Counted from the first letter of the stretch, positions 9,247-28,853 are shown. The stretch: DNA of 64,000 nucleotides from an uncultured Gammaproteobacteria bacterium (GCA_964405655.1 CAYOOO010000002.1:2022-66021); one strand, 5' to 3'. Notes: a model not told the origin generated them from the sequence alone. Translations and numbers: made by a program.

Positions 9247-9286
9247 ATTTAATTCAACAAGCTTATTTCTGTGATATGATTTATCT

Positions 9287-10996
9287 ATGTATAAACAAGC
9301 CTTAGAGCAAGAACTCAGAAGGGCTATTAGTAATCTAGGTTTTAACCCATTAACTGATATAGTTTTATCTATTTCTGAAAGCCCTAAATTTGGAGACTAT
9401 ACTTCGAATGTAGCGCTACAACTTGCTAAACAAAAATTAAAAAAAACCTATCACTCATCTTTAGAAATTGCTAACGATATCTTAGAAAATTTTAAACACC
9501 CACCATTTTTAAAAGAGATCCAAATAGCAGGACCAGGTTTTTTAAACTTTTTCCTCAAAGAGGAAAGTTTACTGGAAATTTTAAAAGCCGAATACCCAAA
9601 AAAAGAGGCAGTTCAAAAGAGATATATTGTTGAATATGCAGATCCCAATACTCATAAAGCCTTTCATATTGGTCACTTAAGAACATTAGCGATTGGTGAG
9701 TCGGTCTCCAGGCTTCTAGAGTTTGAAGGAAATGAGGTTTTCAGGGTTAATTATGGCTCAGACGTGGGTTTGTCAGTGGCAAAGGCCTTGTGGGGCATAG
9801 AAAAACTGAAAGATCACTACCAAAAAGCTAAGAAGTTGTCCTTAAGACAAAAAGCTGAGTTTTTAGGAGAGGCTTACGCCTATGGTCATGACAAATATGA
9901 AACTGATGAATCTGCCAAAAAGGAAATAGACGAAATTACCAAACAGCTCTATCAAAGAGATAAGGCTATTTTACCTCTATGGAAAGAAACAAAAGAGTGG
10001 AGCTTAGCTTATTTTGACAGTATTTACTCCAGGACAGGCACTGAGTTTGACCGCAGAGTCAACGAATCTGAGGTTGATCAACTTGGTAAGCAGATCGTTT
10101 TAGAAAATATTGGTAAGGTCTTTAAAAAAGATCAAGGTGCTATTATCTTCGAGGGTGAAAAATATGGGCTTCATAACAGAGTTTTTATAAACTCAGTCGG
10201 TAACCCAACCTATGAGGCCAAGGATATAGGCTTAATTGAGCTTTACGAACAGATTTTTCCCTTTGATAAAGCAATAATTCTTTCTGATGTGACTCAAGCC
10301 TCTTATCATCAAGTTGTAAAAAAAGCGATTGAACTTATTCATCCTCATCTAACTGATAGGAGACACCATCTTTCCTTTGGCTTTGTCTCTTTGGTGACAG
10401 GCAAGATGTCATCGAGGACGGGAAATATTATTACTGCTGACAGTTTAATAGATCAAGTCATAGAGGAGATAAAGGATAGCTATCCTAATAGTAAAAACCT
10501 GACAGAAGCTAGTTTAAACTTGATTGCAGTGGCTGCAATCAAGTTTTCTTACCTAAAGTACTCAATCTCTTCAGATATCAGCTTAGATATTAAACAGTCG
10601 ATTTCTTTACAAGGAGATAGCGGTCCTTATCTTCTTTATGCTTACGCTAGGATTAATTCTATTTTAAATCGCGCAAAAAAAATTAAAGCTAGAAAGGAAA
10701 AAGTTGATCTTGAAACAAAGCTAATCGCGCAAACCCTGGAAGACGAAGAAAGAGAAGTCTTACGTTCACTAGAATACTTTGAAATAGTGGTTGGGAAAGC
10801 AACCCAGAGATATCAACCCAACGAAGTTGCTAACTTTCTTTTAAATTTAGCTAAATCTTTTAATCTTTTTTATGAAAAGTACCCTGTCTTAGGTTCAGAT
10901 AAAGAGAAGTTTAGGCTGGATCTTTCCAAAAGAGTAGCTGAAACCATTAAAATAGGTCTGAATCTGCTTGGTATAGAGACAGTTGAGAAGATGTGA
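9287..10996 (+). CDS. argS: arginyl-tRNA synthetase
   Basis: 569 aa. Class I HIGH motif (AFHIGHLRT), N-terminal Arg_tRNA_synt_N-like region and a C-terminal DALR anticodon-binding domain. Confidence 0.9.
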   Translation: MYKQALEQELRRAISNLGFNPLTDIVLSISESPKFGDYTSNVALQLAKQKLKKTYHSSLEIANDILENFKHPPFLKEIQIAGPGFLNFFLKEESLLEILKAEYPKKEAVQKRYIVEYADPNTHKAFHIGHLRTLAIGESVSRLLEFEGNEVFRVNYGSDVGLSVAKALWGIEKLKDHYQKAKKLSLRQKAEFLGEAYAYGHDKYETDESAKKEIDEITKQLYQRDKAILPLWKETKEWSLAYFDSIYSRTGTEFDRRVNESEVDQLGKQIVLENIGKVFKKDQGAIIFEGEKYGLHNRVFINSVGNPTYEAKDIGLIELYEQIFPFDKAIILSDVTQASYHQVVKKAIELIHPHLTDRRHHLSFGFVSLVTGKMSSRTGNIITADSLIDQVIEEIKDSYPNSKNLTEASLNLIAVAAIKFSYLKYSISSDISLDIKQSISLQGDSGPYLLYAYARINSILNRAKKIKARKEKVDLETKLIAQTLEDEEREVLRSLEYFEIVVGKATQRYQPNEVANFLLNLAKSFNLFYEKYPVLGSDKEKFRLDLSKRVAETIKIGLNLLGIETVEKM

Positions 10997-20805: not shown

Positions 20806-21429
20806 TTACTGTAACTCAACGGTAGCTCCAGCTGCAGTCAGCTTGGTTTTTGCTTCTTCTGCGGTTTGCTTGTTAACACCCTCCATAACTGGTTTAGGTG
20901 CTGATTCTACTAGGTCTTTTGCTTCTTTTAAGCCTAAAGTCGGAACTAATTCTCTAACTGCTTTAATAGCTCCAATCTTGTTTGCTCCTGCTGAAGCTAA
21001 AATTACATTAAAGGTAGTTTGTTCACTAGCAGCTTCTTCAGCTCCTCCAGCTTGCCCTGCACCGACTGGTGCGGCGGCGACTGGTGCTTGAGCTGTAACA
21101 CCAAACCTATCTTCAAGCGCATGGACTAAATCTGCTAGCTCTAAAACTGACAGTTTTTCAATCTGCTCTATGATTTTTTCTAATTCCTTTGAGATAGGTT
21201 TTACAGCTTTTTTCTGGGGAGCCGGCTCGTCGGTGGTCGAAGCACCGCTCGGCTGACTAGACTTTGGTTCTGGAGTAGTTTCCTTAGCCTCGCTACGGGT
21301 TTGTTGAGAGTCGGAGTCAGTTAAATTTCCTTCTTCTGGAACACTCTCAACTGCACCAGTTGCTTCTGACTCACTCGACTTCGCCGTCTCTTTTTGTTTT
21401 TGATCTTGATCGTCTGCCAATCTAAACAC
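20806..21429 (-). CDS. rplL: 50S ribosomal protein L7/L12 with an ~80-aa acidic N-terminal extension
   Basis: Canonical L7/L12 from [24 protein letters not shown] ... onward. The GTG start overlaps the rplJ stop (GTGTTTAG). The extension is S/T/E/P-rich. Confidence 0.85.
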
Positions 21430-21943
21430 CCCCTCTCATTACTCGAATTTGATCTAGCGCGTATACTAAATTTCTTAAATTAGCCTGTAATACTCCAACT
21501 ATGCCGTAAAGTGGTGCACCTAAGGATCCAACAATGTTAGCTCTTAACTCCTCTTTTGATGGTAGGGAAGCAAGTTTTTGGACTATCACATTATCGATTA
21601 ACTCACCATTAAAGATTCCTAACTTGACTGATCCAATTTGAGCATCTTTGATAGCTTTAGTTAATATTTTGATAGGGGTTATTTCATCTTCATAAGAAAA
21701 TAGGGTTGCAATGGGACCCTGGTAGTTTGTAGGGGGTAGTTTGTAGGGGGTAGAGGCTAGTTTAAGCAGACTGTTTTTGGTAATAGTAAACTCTGCTCCA
21801 ACTTCTCTCAGCTTGCTTCTGAGGTCTGATAATTGAGACATGGTTAAACCTTTATAGTCTACAAAAACCACTGACTTGGCCCTGTCAAGCTTATCAGTTA
21901 AACCTTTGACTATTTGTTCTTTTTGCGCTCTGGTTTTAGGCAT
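21422..21943 (-). CDS. rplJ: 50S ribosomal protein L10
   Basis: [19 protein letters not shown] ... matches L10. Start set at the ATG that follows the GAAGGAG ribosome-binding site. The track ORF extends 14 codons further upstream. Confidence 0.85.
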
Positions 21944-21975
21944 AAAAAAACTCCTTCTTCGAGGAGTTTGAGTAG
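21944..21975 (-). promoter_or_regulatory. rplJ leader hairpin that sequesters the ribosome-binding site, followed by a U-run (L10-leader-like)
   Basis: Minus-strand RNA reads AAACTCCTCGAAGAAGGAGTTTTTTTATG. The stem CTCCT/AGGAG contains the SD, and 7 U precede the start codon. Confidence 0.4.
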
Positions 21976-22128
21976 TATGTATCAAGTATTATGTATTAAG
22001 GGATTTTTGTTTTCCCATAATACTTACTACTTATCCCTTGATACTAATTTTCAACGCCTCGGTGGGATTTACCAATTCCTTGAACCCACTTTCTTAAGCT
22101 TTTAAAATTCTAATCTAGTTGATACAAT

Positions 22129-22467
22129 TTGTCAATGGCAACACTCATCATTACTAAAAAAGCAACTAAAGATCAGATTAAAAAGATGTCATATGAGTAT
22201 GGAAGTTATATTAAAGTAGTAGTAGATATTGAAAAGAGTATATTAGCAGGCGGAGCAGCCATGCATTATGATGAGGAGAGACTATTATTAGAATATGGTT
22301 CAAAACAGCAGAACCTTTGGGGTGGAGGAATAGATTTAGATACAGGTTCAATAGATTATAATTCCATGATTAATTTACGTCCTAATCAAAACAACCCTAG
22401 TAGAGAAATCGTCTCTTTAGAAATTAGAGAGAAGTTTGATAAAATTGTCAAGAGATTGCTAATATGA
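22129..22467 (+). CDS. hypothetical protein (112 aa)
   Basis: ORF whose stop overlaps the next start (ATGA). Conserved-looking core YIKVVVDIEKSILAGG ... NLWGGGIDL. Confidence 0.5.
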   Translation: MSMATLIITKKATKDQIKKMSYEYGSYIKVVVDIEKSILAGGAAMHYDEERLLLEYGSKQQNLWGGGIDLDTGSIDYNSMINLRPNQNNPSREIVSLEIREKFDKIVKRLLI

Positions 22468-22811
22468 AAAATATCCAGGTTACAACTAGTCGCTCCAGCG
22501 ACTCATTGTCCCCAGCTCAGCTTCAAATTTTAAATATCTCGGTTAATCTGGCGAGAATAGGTAACTGGGTGGCTGATTCTTATGAACAGAAAAAAGAATT
22601 GATAAATAAGTTTATTGAACAAACTGCTCAGATGATCTCTGATTTAGATAGTCAAAATAGCTCAAAAGAGTTCAAAACTATCTTAAGTAAGTTTAAGACT
22701 GAGTTTTATAAGCTCAAGGAAGAGCCTATCGATAAAACAAACAAACCTATTTGGGCAGAAAAAGCTTTAACGTGGGCTAATATCTTGCAACATAGAGCTA
22801 AACTAGCCTAA
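22464..22811 (+). CDS. hypothetical protein (115 aa)
   Basis: ORF coupled to the previous one. Its 5' end carries a copy of the locus-specific inverted-repeat motif, so the true start could be internal. Confidence 0.45.
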   Translation: MKNIQVTTSRSSDSLSPAQLQILNISVNLARIGNWVADSYEQKKELINKFIEQTAQMISDLDSQNSSKEFKTILSKFKTEFYKLKEEPIDKTNKPIWAEKALTWANILQHRAKLA

Positions 22812-23665
22812 AACTTAGGTACCCAGATCCAATAACCACTGCCGCCTGAGGCAGGTGGATCGCCTTCAGATCCGGTATTGGCAGGAACCTTGAGCTCAGC
22901 AGATTTGCTGGCAGGTGGAGTGGGTGAATACCAAGTACCAGAAGTTCCTGTTTTGCCCAGATTTTTGATTATAAAGCCAATATCAAAGCTGTTGATGGAG
23001 TTATCTAAGTTAAAATCAATTAATGGGTTCCATTTTTTTGAGGTTGGATTTGCTCCTAAAGCGCTTAGAGTAATATTGTAATCTAGGGTATTAATAGTAT
23101 TGTCCTCATTTAAGTCACCAGTTAGCAAATTAAGAGTATTTAAATCATTCACAGAGGGCTTAACAGTAAAGGCTGAGGCTGTGGCTATCTGCACACTACC
23201 TTTAAGGTAAGCTGTATAGGTTTGACTTTGAGTTAAACCTGCTAGAGACAGATTGGAGTACTCTCCTGAATCAGGTACATTAACAGTAAAAGAGAGAAGG
23301 TATTGAGGATTAGTAATGGGTTGTCCTTGGGCAATTCCTACGAATAACTTAGTAGCCTGTTTGTTTTTGGGTCTTCCTTCGAGGTTAATCTTAAACTTTA
23401 AGGTAGGTCCAAAGCTAATTTCAGCTGAGGAGCTAGCCAGAGAGGAAGATCCATCGCTACCGCCAGACTCTTTAAGTAAACTTTTTTTTAACTCATCAAT
23501 TGGGTTGGTTTTAGGAACTTCTTTAGGGGAGGTTTGAGGGAAGATACTTGTTGTTTTAGCTGCATTTTTTTGATTGATTCTTTTAGAGAGGATAAATGAG
23601 CCTGATGGGATCAGGATGATTAAAACTGCGATGACTATTAAGATTATCTTCTCTTTACCGCGCAT
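22808..23665 (-). CDS. secreted protein with dockerin-like calcium-binding repeats
   Basis: N-terminal signal/TM segment. C-terminus GDLNEDNTINTLDYN ... DFNLDNSINSFDIG fits the dockerin type I repeat pattern. Confidence 0.6.
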   Translation of the reverse strand: MRGKEKIILIVIAVLIILIPSGSFILSKRINQKNAAKTTSIFPQTSPKEVPKTNPIDELKKSLLKESGGSDGSSSLASSSAEISFGPTLKFKINLEGRPKNKQATKLFVGIAQGQPITNPQYLLSFTVNVPDSGEYSNLSLAGLTQSQTYTAYLKGSVQIATASAFTVKPSVNDLNTLNLLTGDLNEDNTINTLDYNITLSALGANPTSKKWNPLIDFNLDNSINSFDIGFIIKNLGKTGTSGTWYSPTPPASKSAELKVPANTGSEGDPPASGGSGYWIWVPKF

Positions 23666-23732
23666 TTTCCCTAACTTTACTATACTATGGAAAAGTTAAA
23701 AGTAAAAAGTGTAAAGTAAATTAAGTAGCAAA

Positions 23733-24788
23733 ATGAACTCTCTCCCCGCTCTAAAGAACGTGGTTTTGAGTTCTTGTCTAACAATGAGAGTACTTTCTTT
23801 AAAGAATCTAGTTAGGATTTTAATAAACAGCCTGATTGGTTTAATTTTAATCCTGATATGGTTGAAGCTGGTTAACCTTCAAGAAGTTTTAGACAAGATT
23901 TCACAAGTAAATCTCCTCTTTACCATACCTTTTATTATTCTATTTGCACTATCTTTTAATCTAAGGGCAATCAGGCTTAAGATACTGCTTTCTTCAGAAC
24001 AAAGTATCCCTTTATCTAACATAGTCTATCTGACTTCTCTTTCCCAGCTTTTAAGCTTTTTGATACCCTTAAGACTAGGGGAGTTAGCTAAAGCAGTTTA
24101 TCTGGGGGCTGAATATAAAATTAAGTTTTCCAAAGCCTTAATTTGGATTCTTTTAGACAGGTTTATAGATTTTTGGACAGTCTTAATAATATCTTTAGTT
24201 TTACTTATCTTTCTGCCTACCAACCTGCCCGAAAACTTAAAGCTTAGTTTATCTTTCCTTATTGTTCTGTCCAGCTTAGGGGGGATCTTTTTAATATTCT
24301 TCCCTAAATATTCCAAAAAACTTGCTGAAATCTTTGCGTTACTCTTAGTATTTAAGCCTGTTAAAAGTCTATTTTTAAAAGTTAGCTTCCATATTATTGA
24401 TACAGCCAGTTTTTTAAATAGGGGGTTAGTAGGCAGTATAAAATTAATTCTGATTACAATCTTAGTACTTATTTCAGATGCGCTGGCTTGGTGGGTACTA
24501 TTTGTAATTGTGTTTAAGACCCAAGCTGGCCTTTTGCCAGTGCTTTTAGGTTCACTTCTAAATACTTTAACTTACCTAATTCCTGCTGCTCCTGGGTATA
24601 TAGGAAGCGCTGAGGCAGCAGGACTAGCTGTTTTCCATTTTGGTTTGGGTTTTGATAAAACTTTGGTTTCAGCCATAACTGTTTTAAACCATGCCTTAAC
24701 TGTTTTTTGTGTTCTTTTTTATGGGCTAATCTCCCTTTACCTTCTTAAATTTGATTTGAGCTTAGTTTGGAAGAAACTAAAAAGATAA
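23733..24788 (+). CDS. UPF0104/flippase-like (MprF-type) polytopic membrane protein
   Basis: Multiple TM helices. N-terminal region typical of lysylphosphatidylglycerol-synthase TM-domain family proteins. Confidence 0.55.
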   Translation: MNSLPALKNVVLSSCLTMRVLSLKNLVRILINSLIGLILILIWLKLVNLQEVLDKISQVNLLFTIPFIILFALSFNLRAIRLKILLSSEQSIPLSNIVYLTSLSQLLSFLIPLRLGELAKAVYLGAEYKIKFSKALIWILLDRFIDFWTVLIISLVLLIFLPTNLPENLKLSLSFLIVLSSLGGIFLIFFPKYSKKLAEIFALLLVFKPVKSLFLKVSFHIIDTASFLNRGLVGSIKLILITILVLISDALAWWVLFVIVFKTQAGLLPVLLGSLLNTLTYLIPAAPGYIGSAEAAGLAVFHFGLGFDKTLVSAITVLNHALTVFCVLFYGLISLYLLKFDLSLVWKKLKR

Positions 24789-25984
24789 AAAGTATTATGA
24801 ATCAGGAATCAGAGAATAACTCCAAAGCCAGTCATACAGCAAAAAAAGCTGATGAGTTTGATGAACCCAGATTACCAGGCGAGGAAGCAGCTGCTTTTTT
24901 AAGGCAGGAAGGTTTCAAGAAGTATCAGCAGGAGCTTCAAGCCCGAGGAGCCCGCCATAAAAAACATGGCGAGGTTGCTAGAGGAATTACCGAGGCGCTA
25001 CAGACTCAAGAAATTGAAGATTACGAACCTTGTCATTTATCTGATGAAGCTAGAGAGAGAATATTGGAAAGAATCAATCAGGCAGCCAGAAAAGAACCTA
25101 CTCTAGAAGCCCAGCAACTTTGGGCAGAGCTCTACCTTTTTCTAAGGGACCACTCTGCTTTTTTTACAGAGTTATCTCATGGGACAACTGCTGAACTTTT
25201 TGATCAGATACTGGTTGAAGGTATCAAACCATATGCAGTTTTAAAGGATCAGGGTAAACTAAGATTTGGTGAGGGAGCCAGAGCAAGCCGTAGAACAAAG
25301 GAAAGAGGGTTAAACCAGATTCCTGCAGGGGTCGGATTGGGCGGTTTAGGCACAGCTATTGCCTATGCGGAATTCACTGCAGATGCAAGACAAAACGAGA
25401 GGTTACAAAATATCCTATCTTTACACAACAGGGCGCTTAGAGATTCCAAGGATCCTGATCTTACTGAAGAATCCAGAAGATTTTACCAGGAACAGTTAGA
25501 GTTTTATAAAGAGGAGCTAAGAACCCCTCCTTCAAAAGGAAAATGGGAATTTCCGGTTGTGCTTGGTTTTGATCATTCTCAAGAAGTTAGCTCGTTTGAT
25601 AATCCTAAGATTGGTTGGGTTGTTGCCTGGCCAGAAGTATATAAAGGTGGGGAATTTAAAGTCCTTTCTTCTTTAAAAAAGGAGCGGGATTTTAAGTCTG
25701 AGGCTAGGCTTGATAGTGAGGTTTATTTACCTCCTGGGGATGAAGTACCATCTGAGGCAATAACTTTAATTGCTTGCCCAAAAGATAAAATGGAAATGGT
25801 AAGAAGAGTAGCAAGGGAGTTTAGAGGAGAAGATATATCTTTTATCTCACTTGAGGCTTTAGAACTTTTACCTAAAATAGGTGTTGATCGGGTTGACTCA
25901 GGCTACAAAACTGCCCGATCCACTACATCAGGAGTAGTAATCAGTGAAAGCCTCAGAAGAACTCGAGAAGACTTACTATATTGA
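24767..25984 (+). CDS. hypothetical protein (405 aa), Arg/Glu-rich
   Basis: Long ORF. Its end overlaps the rplA 3' end (convergent). Composition resembles other R-rich hypothetical proteins in the window. Confidence 0.5.
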   Translation: MEETKKIKSIMNQESENNSKASHTAKKADEFDEPRLPGEEAAAFLRQEGFKKYQQELQARGARHKKHGEVARGITEALQTQEIEDYEPCHLSDEARERILERINQAARKEPTLEAQQLWAELYLFLRDHSAFFTELSHGTTAELFDQILVEGIKPYAVLKDQGKLRFGEGARASRRTKERGLNQIPAGVGLGGLGTAIAYAEFTADARQNERLQNILSLHNRALRDSKDPDLTEESRRFYQEQLEFYKEELRTPPSKGKWEFPVVLGFDHSQEVSSFDNPKIGWVVAWPEVYKGGEFKVLSSLKKERDFKSEARLDSEVYLPPGDEVPSEAITLIACPKDKMEMVRRVAREFRGEDISFISLEALELLPKIGVDRVDSGYKTARSTTSGVVISESLRRTREDLLY

Positions 25985-26902
25985 GGATAGGTCGACTTTA
26001 ACTCCTGGACCCAAGGTAGGTGAGAGGGTGACTTTTTTTATTCTGGATTTTCCCAAGGTTATTAGTAAGGTTTTAACATTGGCAGTAAGTTCCTCAGAAG
26101 GCTGGTTAAGTTTTCCCAAAGCTAGATGAATAATTGGAGCTTTTGGCTCACTTTTATATTCTGTTTTACCACCTTGGAAATTTTCAACAGCTTTTTTCAA
26201 TCCGTCAGCTGACGGACTGGTAATAGTTCCATTCTTGGGATTTGGCATCAAACCTTTAGGTCCTAAGACTTTGGCAACTTTAGCCAGTTTACTCATCCAC
26301 AAAGGTGTAGTAATAACCATATCAAAGTCTATTTTACCCTTACTTATCTCCTCTAATGTTTCATCTGTACCAACAATATCTGCTCCAGACTCTTGGGCAT
26401 CTTTGCCAAAAGCCAGAATCCTTAACTTCTTTCCTTCTGAGTAAGGTAGAGAAACTAAACCTCTAAGACCAGTTGTTTGAGTATTGATATGAATTTCTAA
26501 AGAACCTGTGAACTTTGAGTAGGAAAGTTTTTTTGAGAGTTCAACAGCTTCAGGAATAGAGTAGTGCTTACCTCTTTCAAATTCCTCTACAGTTTTTTGG
26601 TATTTTTTAGAACGCTTTCTAGGCTGTCCTTGCTTTTTTTGTTTGGGCTTCTCGGAAGCAGTTTTAGTTGCTGATGGAGCTTGAGTAACCGAGCCGCCCA
26701 CTTTCTGCTGGGTATCTTCTATTTGAACTTCTTGATCCTTAGTAAGCTCAACTGCGCCAACTGCTTTATCTGATTCAGACTTTGCTTTCTTTAAAGCTTG
26801 ATCTCGCTCAATATTTGTTGCCAGAACTTTTTTAGGAGCTTTCTTTTTTGGTTCCTCAGCTGCTACTGAGTCATCAATTGTTTTAATCTTAGTTTTTCCC
26901 AT
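25976..26902 (-). CDS. rplA: 50S ribosomal protein L1 with an ~95-aa Lys/Glu-rich N-terminal extension
   Basis: Core from KKYQKTVEEFERGKHYSIPEAVELSKK ... to the end matches L1. The upstream in-frame extension is lysine-rich. Confidence 0.85.
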   Translation of the reverse strand: MGKTKIKTIDDSVAAEEPKKKAPKKVLATNIERDQALKKAKSESDKAVGAVELTKDQEVQIEDTQQKVGGSVTQAPSATKTASEKPKQKKQGQPRKRSKKYQKTVEEFERGKHYSIPEAVELSKKLSYSKFTGSLEIHINTQTTGLRGLVSLPYSEGKKLRILAFGKDAQESGADIVGTDETLEEISKGKIDFDMVITTPLWMSKLAKVAKVLGPKGLMPNPKNGTITSPSADGLKKAVENFQGGKTEYKSEPKAPIIHLALGKLNQPSEELTANVKTLLITLGKSRIKKVTLSPTLGPGVKVDLSSI

Positions 26903-26907
26903 GGTTT

Positions 26908-27336
26908 TTAACTTGAAACTTTAACCCCCATTGATCTGGCAGTGCCTTCTACTATTTTCATGGCAGCCTCCAAATCACTAGCGTTTAGATCCGGCATTTT
27001 AGCTTTGGCAATATCTTCTACCTGACTTTTGGATAAAGTTCCGGCACTTTCATGGCCGCTTTTTCCGGCTCCTTTTTCTACTCCTAAAGCCTTTTTAATC
27101 ATTTCAGCCACAGGTGGTTCTTTGGTAATAAAGCTAAATGTTCTATCTTCAAAAACTGTGATTACAACTGGTAGGATATTGCCTTGTTTTTCTTTAGTCT
27201 TCTCATTAAAGGCCTTAACAAAGTCCATTATAGGCAAGCCATGTTGACCCAAAGCTGGGCCAACAGGAGGAGCGGCAGTTGCTGTACCTGCAGGAATATT
27301 TAGTTTTATAAATGTTTTTACCTTTTTGTTTGCCAT
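26908..27336 (-). CDS. rplK: 50S ribosomal protein L11
   Basis: [33 protein letters not shown] is the L11 N-terminal signature. Confidence 0.92.
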
Positions 27337-27438
27337 ATAAATAATTTAAAACATTTACTCAGGCCTTTAGGCCGCTGTATGTTTTAATCTTTTTTGCTGC
27401 CATAAGTTTTGCAATTATATGTAAATTTGAATTCTATC

Positions 27439-27762
27439 TCAAGCATCTTGTTGTTCCAAGAAAACCTGGTGCGCTTGAAAGCGTACTTCCATAAACCTAA
27501 CACCACTTCTTCTTATAGAAGCCATGAACTCTTGATTTGTTTGGCCATTAAGTCTTGCATTGCAATTCAGACAAATACTTGGCAGGTCAGATCTATAAGC
27601 CTTTAAACCTATTGCAGCCTTGTCTATCTCTTTTGCTGAAACTACTCTTATTAGGTCGTCTGCTTCTGTAGAAAATAAAGTATAGACATGGCCTGCTAAA
27701 TTTCTAGCTTTCTCGTTCCCTGGACAGGGATATGCTACAAATTCGTATTCCGACAAACTCAT
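27439..27762 (-). CDS. hypothetical protein (107 aa) inserted between nusG and rplK
   Basis: Its start lies 3 nt after the nusG stop. CPG ... CLNC cysteines. No family recognised. Confidence 0.5.
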   Translation of the reverse strand: MSLSEYEFVAYPCPGNEKARNLAGHVYTLFSTEADDLIRVVSAKEIDKAAIGLKAYRSDLPSICLNCNARLNGQTNQEFMASIRRSGVRFMEVRFQAHQVFLEQQDA

Positions 27763-27764
27763 TT

Positions 27765-28580
27765 TTAAAGTTTAGTTATCTGCAAAAAGTCTAGCTCCAC
27801 AGGTGTTTCTCTACCAAAGATGGAAACTAAGACTCTGACCTTGCCTTTTTCCTTATCAACTGTATCAACTTTGCCTATAAATTCTGAAAAAGGACCATCA
27901 ATAATTTTGACTGTGTCATTTGGTAAGAAAACATCTTTAAAAGTAGCAGGAGCACCCTGGCTCATGAAGGTCACAATAGACTTAACCTCTGATTCAGGGA
28001 TAGAGGTAGGTTTGTTACCAATTCCTACAAAGGAGGTAACACCTGGGGTGGTTCTTACAGCCAGCCAGGAGGTATCATCTAAGATCATCTTAACCAAGAT
28101 ATAGCCTGGGAAGATTTTTTCTTTAATCTGCTCCTTTTTACCTGCTCTAATCTCAATTTTGTCTTGAGTTGGGACTAAGATATCTAAAATTTTATGCTCC
28201 AAGTGTTCAGATTCAATTTTCTGTTTTAGATTAGCTAAAACTTTGTTCTCATGACCAGAGTAAGTATGAACCACATACCACTTAGCTTTATCAGACTCGC
28301 TTGATGGAGAAGAAGGTGCTGATCGGGTTGGGGTGGTAGGCTCATCTGTTTCTTGCTCATCGTTGTCCATGGAAGCTCCTGCTTCAGCGGGTTCTTGGTC
28401 TGTGGCCGATTCGTCGATTTGTTCCTCTTTACTATCAATCTGCTCTTCAGCTTTTGTTCCTTGTTCAGGAACTTCTGGCTGCTCAGCTTCGCTAATTGTT
28501 TTGCCTGATTCAGACTCAGCATCTTTTAGAGCTTCATCTGTTTGTGTATTTTGTTTTTGATCGTTGCTATTATCTGCCAT
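27765..28580 (-). CDS. nusG: transcription antiterminator NusG with an ~95-aa acidic N-terminal extension
   Basis: NGN and KOW core (KWYVVHTYSGHENKV ... GKVRVLVSIFGRETPVELDF). The extension is D/E/Q/S-rich. Confidence 0.88.
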   Translation of the reverse strand: MADNSNDQKQNTQTDEALKDAESESGKTISEAEQPEVPEQGTKAEEQIDSKEEQIDESATDQEPAEAGASMDNDEQETDEPTTPTRSAPSSPSSESDKAKWYVVHTYSGHENKVLANLKQKIESEHLEHKILDILVPTQDKIEIRAGKKEQIKEKIFPGYILVKMILDDTSWLAVRTTPGVTSFVGIGNKPTSIPESEVKSIVTFMSQGAPATFKDVFLPNDTVKIIDGPFSEFIGKVDTVDKEKGKVRVLVSIFGRETPVELDFLQITKL

Positions 28581-28667: not shown

Positions 28668-28853
28668 TTACCTGTTGATTATCAAGTCAGTAAGTTGAGT
28701 CAACAAGTAGTCGATTCCACCAATAAAAAAGCCTACAGTAATGGTAACAATAACAACCATTATTGTAAGCTTAATTGTCTGTTGCCTAGAAGGCCAGACA
28801 ACTTTTGATAATTCTACCCTAACTTCTTTTAAAAAATCAAGTGCTTTCTTCAT
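28668..28853 (-). CDS. secE: preprotein translocase subunit SecE
   Basis: 61 aa with a single TM helix. N-terminus ... VRVELSKVVWPSRQQ ... is typical of SecE. Confidence 0.8.
   Translation of the reverse strand: MKKALDFLKEVRVELSKVVWPSRQQTIKLTIMVVIVTITVGFFIGGIDYLLTQLTDLIINR

Follow-up and report, generated by a model that had tools for sequence, protein, structure and literature searches.

Rickettsia palindromic elements (RPEs; Ogata et al. 2000, 2002, as summarized in PMC10969869) are hairpin repeats of about 150 bp that are dispersed in a small genome and lie in-frame in unrelated genes, where they leave the host open reading frame (ORF) open, add a peptide at positions compatible with the protein fold, and differ in presence or absence among orthologues. 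Here we describe a repeat with similar features from Candidatus Daviesbacteria (Microgenomates, candidate phyla radiation, CPR), copies of which lie in the N-terminal extensions (tails) of ribosomal proteins L7/L12 (bL12) and L1 (uL1) and of NusG in one 64,000-nucleotide stretch of DNA. This stretch (the window; GCA_964405655.1 CAYOOO010000002.1:2022-66021) carries the name of an uncultured Gammaproteobacteria bacterium, and its match is contig JACOXF010000004.1 (locus L008) of the Daviesbacteria assembly GCA_016176395.1. Like RPEs, the Daviesbacteria repeat is multi-copy and palindromic, lies in-frame in unrelated ORFs that stay open, and is present in some orthologues and absent from others. 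It occurs, however, in an unrelated lineage and is likened to RPEs by its features, as an analogue rather than a member given the phylogenetic distance. It also differs in being a three-way junction with tandem G·A loops instead of a simple palindrome, and in that its copies are mostly intergenic with a strict orientation, whereas its sense-strand hosts are essential (L1, L12, ribosomal protein S16, and NusG) and carry it at their termini.

Some of the host tails have precedents. In the parts of Tsurumaki et al. (2022; PMC9297842) that concern uL1 and bL12, a uL1 N-terminal region of 40 to 130 amino acids (aa) without a Pfam match is described from Microgenomates and other CPR, and bL12 is listed among the proteins that are larger in CPR. 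The window L1 tail is an instance of that uL1 insertion, which the same parts of the paper leave undissected and unconnected with any DNA repeat, L12, or NusG. The NusG of Mycobacterium smegmatis has a disordered N-terminal appendage (residues 1 to 89; bioRxiv 10.1101/2022.10.21.513233); the Daviesbacteria NusG tail is likewise lineage-specific, predicted to be disordered, and N-terminal to the NGN domain, but it is of independent origin, ranges from 13 to 210 aa, and is partly derived from a repeat, none being reported for the actinobacterial extension.

Repeats of the REP/REPIN and MITE types (ERIC, Correia, SPRITE) are also short, noncoding, hairpin-forming, and multi-copy, and like them the Daviesbacteria repeat lies downstream of genes and avoids divergent promoter regions. 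Unlike them, it shows neither a RAYT or transposase partner nor a GTAG-type motif or target-site duplication; compared with REPs it is longer and more elaborately structured, and no clear U-tract follows the hairpin (about three or four U after the stem in the flank, as read from alignment A6). The acidic tails of the archaeal and eukaryotic stalk proteins P1 and P2 are C-terminal and conserved and bind translation factors. The L12 tail resembles these in being an acidic disordered segment on the GTPase-associated stalk, but it is N-terminal, stands beside the L10-binding domain, and appears to evolve almost neutrally.

We consider it likely that the tails of L12, L1, and NusG are translated, disordered, and typical of the lineage, and that they have been colonized by a dispersed hairpin repeat specific to Daviesbacteria whose peptide is mostly a tolerated passenger. 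The L1 extension is already published; an RPE-like family was not found described for CPR, and a limited literature search, which is not proof of novelty, returned no report of this repeat family or of in-frame repeats in CPR.

Copies of the repeat in three tailed genes

An earlier note on this DNA had proposed N-terminal extensions on NusG, L7/L12, and L1 and had read the first two as paralogous tails. The extensions themselves are borne out by the ORF coordinates and by Pfam domains that begin only at aa 84 (L12), 100 (NusG), and 125 (L1); the paralogy is not supported, as detailed below. The tailed genes, their extensions, and the repeat copies in the window are as follows (loci and protein records are cited by handles beginning with L and P).

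20806-21420 (-), rplL (bL12) coding sequence (CDS), 204 codons from a probable TTG start; the mechanical ORF reaches GTG 21429
21187-21420 (-), L12 N-terminal extension, 78 aa: a short N-terminal stretch, a repeat-encoded segment, and a short C-terminal stretch
21219-21390 (-), complete in-frame copy of the repeat in rplL (nhmmer E 1.7e-29, 100 bits, model positions 2-169)
25976-26902 (-), rplA (uL1) CDS, 308 aa; Pfam PF00687 Ribosomal_L1 at aa 125-299
26615-26902 (-), L1 N-terminal extension, about 96 aa: MGKTKIKTIDDS motif, Lys-rich linker, repeat remnant, basic motif, then RSKKYQ
26737-26789 (-), 5' remnant of the repeat in rplA, in-frame as KKAKSESDKAVGAVELTK (nhmmer E 3.4e-5 to 7e-10, depending on the profile)
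27765-28580 (-), nusG CDS, 271 aa, ATG at 28580; Pfam PF02357 NGN at aa 100-202 (E 4.1e-29) and PF00467 KOW at aa 220-252 (E 1.9e-6)
28287-28580 (-), acidic NusG N-terminal extension, 98 aa, net charge -22
28480-28516 (-), short decayed remnant of the repeat 5' arm in nusG, 37 nt, read as (A)ESESGKTISEAEQ

The rplL copy supplies about 57 of the 78 extra residues of L12; its terminal stems pair in the fold, and it forms one row of the strongly covarying alignment A4. The rplA and nusG copies have lost the 3' arm, so that the fold cannot form. Against the maximum of 1,000 dinucleotide shuffles, the DNA profile scored 100 versus 4.4 bits for rplL, 20.9 versus 7.3 bits for rplA, and 11.2 versus 4.5 bits for nusG, and the nusG remnant was also found with the window L1 module as the query (nhmmer E 1.6e-4). 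Elsewhere, full copies occupy the same position in NusG (L017 and L010) and in L1 (L009, L016, and L033). Copies measure 164 to 172 nt in the window and 143 to 150 nt in L004 (about 145 to 170 nt for the family), and their mean G+C content is 0.46, compared with 0.37 for the window.

Protein searches, run in a database of 360 collected homologues plus reversed decoys, gave a concordant picture. With the window L12 tail as the query, phmmer returned other L12 tails, two NusG tails (P0223, E 3.9e-10; P0187, E 4e-9), and L1 tails (P0266, E 2.1e-9, and weaker ones). The iterated search (jackhmmer) gathered 28 L1, 14 L12, and 3 NusG tails, including aa 33 to 94 of the window L1 (E 2e-11). Neither search matched a decoy among the reversed homologues, and the cross-family matches are collinear over several motifs. 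The L1 tail, which the earlier note had set apart from the other two, belongs by this E value and by its DNA-profile score to the same set; judged from these searches, it is in fact the tail most clearly related to that of L12. The copies found across the gene families are copies at the DNA level, and therefore the resemblance among the tails is one of copies of a single DNA repeat, not of protein paralogy; what L12 and NusG have in common is a dispersed hairpin repeat that is mostly intergenic and has stops in all six frames there. For the window pair itself, the link between L12 and NusG comes down to the 37-nt remnant and a short DQKQ N-terminal peptide, and nothing more. A search with the L12 tail in a library of 1.84 billion representatives gave no match at E≤0.001 and is uninformative, with a high score threshold and representatives that may lack the tail. 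Variants of the L1 tail (EGRLPPNAASSR.. and SRLSEEGE..) were considered as frame-shifted readings of the repeat and rejected: frame +1 and +2 translations match nothing, and by eye the variants are in-frame with insertions and deletions.

Composition and conservation of the tails

The three proteins are otherwise canonical. L12 has the N-terminal dimerization and L10-binding domain (PF16320, L12_N, aa 84-130, E 5.8e-18) and the C-terminal factor-binding domain (PF00542, aa 140-207, E 1.3e-26), both of which appear in the AlphaFold2 model with a flexible hinge between them; NusG has NGN followed by KOW and lies in the order secE-nusG-(small ORF)-rplK-rplA; and L1 has the L1 domain after a tail of about 96 aa with motifs common to 120 homologues, as expected of a uL1 with the CPR/Microgenomates N-terminal insertion. 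An NCBI record (P0241) holds the identical 308-aa L1, so that its full length is kept in public annotation.

Before the Pfam domain, the tails run for about 78 to 81 aa (L12), about 98 aa (NusG), and about 96 aa (L1). They differ in charge, with 16 acidic and 11 basic residues in L12 (net -5), 29 and 7 in NusG (net -22), and 14 and 23 in L1 (net +9), and hydrophobic residues are scarce in all three. In an AlphaFold2 model based on a 29-sequence alignment, L12 residues 1 to 73 have a pLDDT of 43 to 48 and no secondary structure, while the N- and C-terminal domains are confident. The tails are thus predicted to be disordered, as the earlier note had supposed. Such tails are not a genome-wide habit: among about 60 window ORFs, only L1, NusG, L12, and one dockerin-like protein have them.

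Tail length varies widely among relatives. The tail position holds 15 to 102 residues in L12, and nearly all of the best 120 L12 homologues are 140 to 225 aa long and begin with MADD or MADE. About 120 NusG homologues (184 to 381 aa) begin with M-[ANSD]-D-[DN].. and have 13 to 210 residues before WYVVHT; the middle of the NusG tail cannot be aligned even to that of the closest relative, L007. In 120 L1 homologues, 40 to 132 residues precede RSKKYQ, and the tail has conserved motifs on both sides, MG[KR][TP][KR][IV]K.IDDS (the MGKTKIKTIDDS motif) at the N-terminus and the basic KK.QKPGKAKP at the other end, around a middle that varies and is often occupied by the repeat. In L003, L1 (7862-8554) is only 230 aa long; the tail is kept, about 70 residues of the L1 domain are gone, and the protein reads ..LRILAFGSTASKPDSSEEISDVEFKTETKAPVIHL... 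This may be an artifact of assembly or a genuine internal deletion of the kind reported for CPR uL1.

Structure of the repeat

Going inward, the element begins with a 4-bp outer stem whose sequence varies but stays complementary. A conserved GAA/GA internal loop separates it from a stem of about 16 bp, which is followed by two inner arms; a symmetric tandem G·A motif (GY-GA-GN / N'C-GA-RC) closes one of these. Conservation and covariation are also seen in the complementary arms at the termini (NNGC-GAA-GUC... and ...GAC-GA-GCNN), and the termini pair in single-sequence folds as well. Over 49 copies, 95.7% of cells are paired, compared with 76.1% after column shuffling (reached in 0 of 500 shuffles) and 30 to 47% with slid partners; compensatory changes occur in 18 of the 22 pairs, and about 1% of cells hold a G-U pair. 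The intergenic subtype, taken by itself, has 40 predicted pairs, 20 of them with compensatory changes. With G-U pairs so scarce, the constraint would seem to act on both strands, i.e., on DNA hairpins.

In searches against Rfam 15, no copy matched at E≤1 in L004, L023, L024, L031, or L037, and none reached the gathering score in the window. A hammerhead or other known ribozyme or riboswitch was rejected, since the GACGAG and GCGAAGUC ends are base-paired arms instead of a catalytic core. An intron or excised intervening sequence was rejected as well: copy lengths are not consistently multiples of three, and in-gene copies are free of stops while intergenic ones are not. One intergenic copy (L035 6947-7111, and likewise in L036) carries a 26-nt insertion, TAAGCAAAGCTTGCGACCTTCGGTCT, that forms a small hairpin between the long stem and the first inner arm.

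Distribution, hosts, and orientation

A species-representative genome collection scanned with a degenerate DNA pattern for the 3' half of the repeat yielded 35 loci, and a metagenome scan with a degenerate pattern yielded 64 more, with four strict hits on one 1.02-Mb contig. The profile recognized 44 copies in the former set and 68 in the latter. The loci are nearly all from Daviesbacteria, with up to six strict-pattern hits per assembly and three copies within 3 to 8 kb in L004, L024, L037, and L039. Loci from Acidobacteriota, Mediterraneibacter, and Sutterella were set aside as chance, two of them having no profile match and one a weak partial match (E 0.008), at an estimated eight or so chance hits expected. 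Six contigs from metagenome-assembled genomes named uncultured Gammaproteobacteria (L012, L021, L023, L025, L036, and L037, from binchicken co-assemblies) contain the repeat and share 80 to 100% protein identity with Daviesbacteria loci; by this measure, their record titles look wrong.

Most copies are intergenic: no ORF of ≥140 aa crosses 32 of the 40 full copies. Intergenic copies have stops in all six frames, whereas in-gene copies are open in the frame that reads AKSE. The in-frame sense hosts are L1, L12, and NusG, with the repeat in the N-terminal tail, and S16, whose identity was confirmed with Pfam, with the repeat in a C-terminal tail. The S16 tail, of about 100 aa, occurs in some Daviesbacteria (L048 1740-1891, L097 276-423, and L029 78-223), and the L029 copy lies just upstream of a khpA-like KH-domain gene. 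In the reverse orientation, copies are found inside the WecG and GT4 glycosyltransferase genes of L004, which a six-frame search showed to read another frame (...SSSGRKAPLASPKRSLLVRFASNKSSDIVSNVRSTSPIAL...). Orthologues differ in whether they carry the element: alignments of WecG and GT4 show the insert in L001, L004, and L007 and none in the window, L003, or L006, and L12 proteins occur both with and without the repeat. The three L004 copies match one another at 54 to 56 bits, compared with 27.7 bits between the rplL copies of L004 and the window.

Orientation is strikingly regular. Between codirectional genes, 50 copies are antisense and none is sense; 10 copies lie between convergent genes and none between divergent ones. 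Within genes, 12 copies are sense (in the ribosomal protein genes and nusG) and 4 antisense. The intergenic copies of a locus (loci L011-L109) all lie on one absolute strand. Candidate causes of the orientation rule include replication-coupled transposition of single-stranded DNA (ssDNA) and terminator-like selection. Lying downstream of genes in every case, the intergenic copies would in position and orientation suit an intrinsic terminator-like repeat of the SPRITE type.

A second, unrelated palindromic repeat that is GC-rich and about 100 to 115 nt long (CTCGGGGTCCTGCC..GCAGCCCCAT..) was observed at L007 13295-13409, L001 12845-12940, and L006 16964-17067. It lies in-frame in the WecG gene of L007 and the GT4 gene of L001 (..ARGPASSQPH..GAPRS.SPL..) and is intergenic in L006, and it folds at -44 to -49 kcal/mol. 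Because this unrelated repeat behaves likewise, in-frame colonization by repeats looks like a general habit of these genomes.

Level of constraint and interpretation of the repeat

Substitution rates were compared between the rplL of the window and those of L007, L001, and L003. In the extension, dS is 0.21 to 0.44 and dN/dS 0.50 to 0.84; in the core, dS is saturated (>2), and dN/dS, where computable, is 0.05 to 0.09. The low dS and high dN/dS of the extension therefore point to conservation at the nucleotide level, through structure or recent homogenization of copies, instead of at the protein level, with a peptide that appears to drift almost neutrally. This drift is the main argument against a shared peptide under selection.

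We think that L12, L1, and NusG would offer solvent-exposed, permissive termini, the L12 N-terminus preceding its L10-binding helices, in which a selfish hairpin-forming repeat, mobile as we infer, could settle and be translated. As ssDNA or RNA, the repeat folds into a long terminal stem and a three-way junction whose tandem G·A internal loops are conserved. A stop-free subtype lies in-frame in genes, most copies being intergenic, and in one orientation and frame it encodes an acidic/polar peptide, (E)E.AKSE..KA.GEVERT.E...S.E.GAKQT.SE..G.ASGA.RPDEP. The window presents three states of the element: complete in rplL, decayed in rplA so that the 5' part is left, and shrunk to a short remnant in nusG.

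Several observations weigh against this view. All four sense in-frame hosts are ribosome or transcription proteins, which random insertion with tolerance would not predict and which hints at selection or a gene-linked mechanism. No transposase or autonomous partner was found, although no search was made for an insertion sequence with the same ends; a weak Y1_Tnp gene (L006) and an rve_3 gene (L009) were noted, neither of which adjoins a repeat copy. The flanks in alignments A4 and A6 show no target-site duplication or direct repeat. The low dS could reflect recent gene conversion instead of structural constraint, the nusG remnant of the window is short (37 to 45 nt), and the NCBI annotation begins NusG and L12 downstream of the tails.

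The element might instead function in cis at the RNA level, acting on the mRNA from the 5' coding regions of rplL, rplA, and nusG, for example by changing its stability or how fast it is translated, or by offering a binding site to a protein that recognizes tandem G·A loops, with the intergenic copies serving as 3'-end or processing elements. The strong covariation, the conserved G·A internal loops, the conserved synonymous sites, and the extreme orientation bias of the intergenic copies would all suit such a role. However, the copies in ribosomal protein genes are opposite to the intergenic ones relative to transcription, so that one RNA function cannot cover both; the scarcity of G-U pairs fits DNA (both strands) better than one RNA strand; no Rfam family matches; and the rplA and nusG copies of the window cannot fold without the 3' arm. 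We regard an RNA-level function as unlikely.

Rather improbable, in our view, is a co-opted protein module, in which the acidic peptide would be a selected disordered tag on the L1 stalk, the L12 stalk, S16, and NusG, perhaps a brush that acts entropically or against aggregation, or a short linear motif bound by one partner in all of them, and the intergenic copies would be its selfish source. All sense in-frame hosts belong to translation or transcription and use the same frame, at the N-terminus of L1, L12, and NusG and the C-terminus of S16; AKSE..KA.G.VE is recognizable across hosts; and long disordered segments in the 64 kb are confined to these proteins and one dockerin-like protein. Yet dN/dS in the rplL extension is near neutral, with conservation at the synonymous sites; in many relatives, L12 or NusG is without the element or has a tail that cannot be aligned; the L1 and NusG copies of the window are decaying; and the glycosyltransferases read the same DNA in a different frame. 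Co-option and an RNA-level role each keep some small probability because the sense hosts are all ribosome or transcription proteins and the orientation rule is absolute.

Start sites and translation of the tails

Translation of the tails depends on where the genes begin. The features that bear on the starts are as follows.

21429-21435 (-), GAGGGGG, Shine-Dalgarno-like, within the rplJ 3' end and 8 nt ahead of TTG 21420
21193-21195 (-), ATC (Ile79), the NCBI start of rplL (P0008, 129 aa, "MSKELEKII")
28368-28370 (-), ATG (Met71), the NCBI start of nusG (P0121, 201 aa), with GGAG 6 nt upstream

Upstream of the L10-binding domain, rplL has only two in-frame ATG, GTG, or TTG codons, GTG 21429 (codon 1) and TTG 21420 (codon 4), the latter one base past the rplJ stop. 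The earlier note had placed the start at a GTG overlapping the rplJ stop. The overlap at 21429 is real, but the conserved rplJ-rplL junction of relatives (GGGAGGTGTTTAAATT-ATG-GCA-GAC-GAT or GGGAGGTGTTTAA-ATT-ATG-GCA-GAC-GAT) aligns with GAGGGGGTGTTTAG-A-TTG-GCA-GAC-GAT of the window at TTG 21420, and GGGAGG or GGGGGG occurs at the position homologous to GAGGGGG in L001, L003, L004, L006, and L009. From this junction and the GAGGGGG motif, the rplL start is therefore most likely TTG 21420. L12 gene-caller variants such as MFKLADD represent the same TTG situation.

The NCBI starts would, if right, make the upstream frames an untranslated leader, and on this contig they give an L12 of 129 aa and a NusG of 201 aa, the latter from a Met71 that follows the peptide TISEAEQPEVPEQGTK and has GGAG 6 nt upstream. 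Against this, ATC 21195 is preceded by AGAAAAAAGCTGTAAAACCT, which lacks a Shine-Dalgarno sequence, and the L12 N-terminal domain has no ATG, GTG, or TTG nearby; Met71 is not conserved in relatives. The chance of a stop-free frame at the given composition is 0.004 for the 78 codons of rplL and 0.001 for the 98 codons of nusG. More than 100 relatives keep the long ORFs, with ATG starts and the conserved MADD (L12), MxDD (NusG), or MGKTKIKTIDDS (L1) motifs; the ATG with MADD or MxDD comes directly after rplJ or secE, insertions and deletions preserve the frame, and in-gene repeat copies are free of stops where intergenic ones are full of them. The alignment in relatives did not yield conserved internal starts with an unconserved upstream frame, the pattern that the earlier note had set beforehand as telling against the extensions. 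On these comparisons, it is very likely that the L12, L1, and NusG tails are translated from the upstream start, and absence of the tails from the proteins is very improbable. The NusG of L006 is similarly called short, at 243 aa instead of the 280 aa of the ORF that has the conserved MSDDNQ start.

Chance resemblance and the shared 14-mer

Compared directly, the L12 and NusG tails of the window have a local score of 68, against 57.6±7.5 in composition-matched shuffles (p=0.095); the corresponding values are p=0.026 for L12-L1 and p=0.003 for NusG-L1. The earlier note had pointed to a stretch of DNA common to rplL and nusG, and the 14-mer GATCAAAAACAAAA does occur exactly twice in the 64 kb; at ≤1 mismatch there are 3 matches versus 0.21 expected.

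21392-21405 (-), GATCAAAAACAAAA in rplL (D-Q-K-Q-K), directly 5' of the repeat copy
28549-28562 (-), second copy of GATCAAAAACAAAA in nusG (D-Q-K-Q-N)

The rplL of L001 likewise has GATCAAAAACAA, DDQKQ-like N-termini recur in the L12 and NusG families, and the 14-mer uses the commonest codons for DQKQ. It was rejected as a part of the repeat: its distance from the repeat is 1 nt in rplL but about 30 in nusG, and beyond an A-rich stretch intergenic copies have no conserved flanks. We treat it as an N-terminal habit common to L12 and NusG. To chance resemblance of low-complexity acidic sequences we give almost no credence: the L12-NusG p value and the A-rich codons of the 14-mer are what it would predict, but the decoys gave no match, the DNA-profile scores lie far above those of the shuffles, the matches are collinear, and the 14-mer is overrepresented, so that chance is largely refuted for L12-L1 and may still account for the 14-mer alone.

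Neighboring genes

The remaining genes of the locus that enter into the argument are listed below.

21422-21943 (-), rplJ (uL10), ATG start (MPKTRAQ), Pfam Ribosomal_L10
26908-27336 (-), rplK
27439-27762 (-), small ORF between nusG and rplK, no Pfam match
28668-28853 (-), secE

Five genes (22129-25984) split rplKA from rplJL in the window: a DUF5674 gene, a 115-aa ORF, a dockerin-like gene, a gene for an LPG_synthase_TM membrane protein, and a 405-aa ORF. L006 and L007 keep the first four at the same site. The 405-aa ORF (24767-25984), which has an acidic N-terminus and no Pfam match, is found, among the fetched loci, in the window genome only. Small ORFs without a Pfam match (98 to 107 aa) lie between nusG and rplK in the window (27439-27762), L003 (7101-7397), and L010 (10830-11141); they were rejected as one family, since BLASTP comparison of the three shows no relationship (E 0.68 and no alignment). 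Upstream of rplJ, L004 has a sub-threshold match to the Rfam L10 leader (9267-9399, 39.8 bits versus a gathering score of 44), and no L10 leader match at the gathering score was found in the window.

Implications for CPR proteins and repeats

Public annotation very probably truncates the starts of these genes systematically, cutting L12 to 129 aa and NusG to 201 aa, and the comparison of the three tails carries a caution, namely, that likeness among disordered tails can be nucleotide-level repeat homology and not protein paralogy. The repeat defines a structured family outside Rfam, with strong covariation and an absolute orientation rule. It partly explains the uL1 insertion and the enlarged bL12 of CPR, in that at least some of the tail is very probably a translated copy of a dispersed DNA repeat, and it takes selfish DNA inside protein-coding genes, emblematic of Rickettsia, to CPR, with highly expressed core hosts (L1, L7/L12, S16, and NusG). 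It is doubtful, and at best a tentative idea, that the translation and transcription machinery of Daviesbacteria (the L1 stalk, the L12 stalk, the S16 tail, and NusG) has recruited the sense repeat as a module shared by its parts; such recruitment could have taken the route of an acidic disordered tag that tethers or organizes factors, or of a k-turn-like tandem-G·A mRNA structure with one regulator. If it were true, a selfish element would have given rise to a lineage-specific feature of the ribosome.

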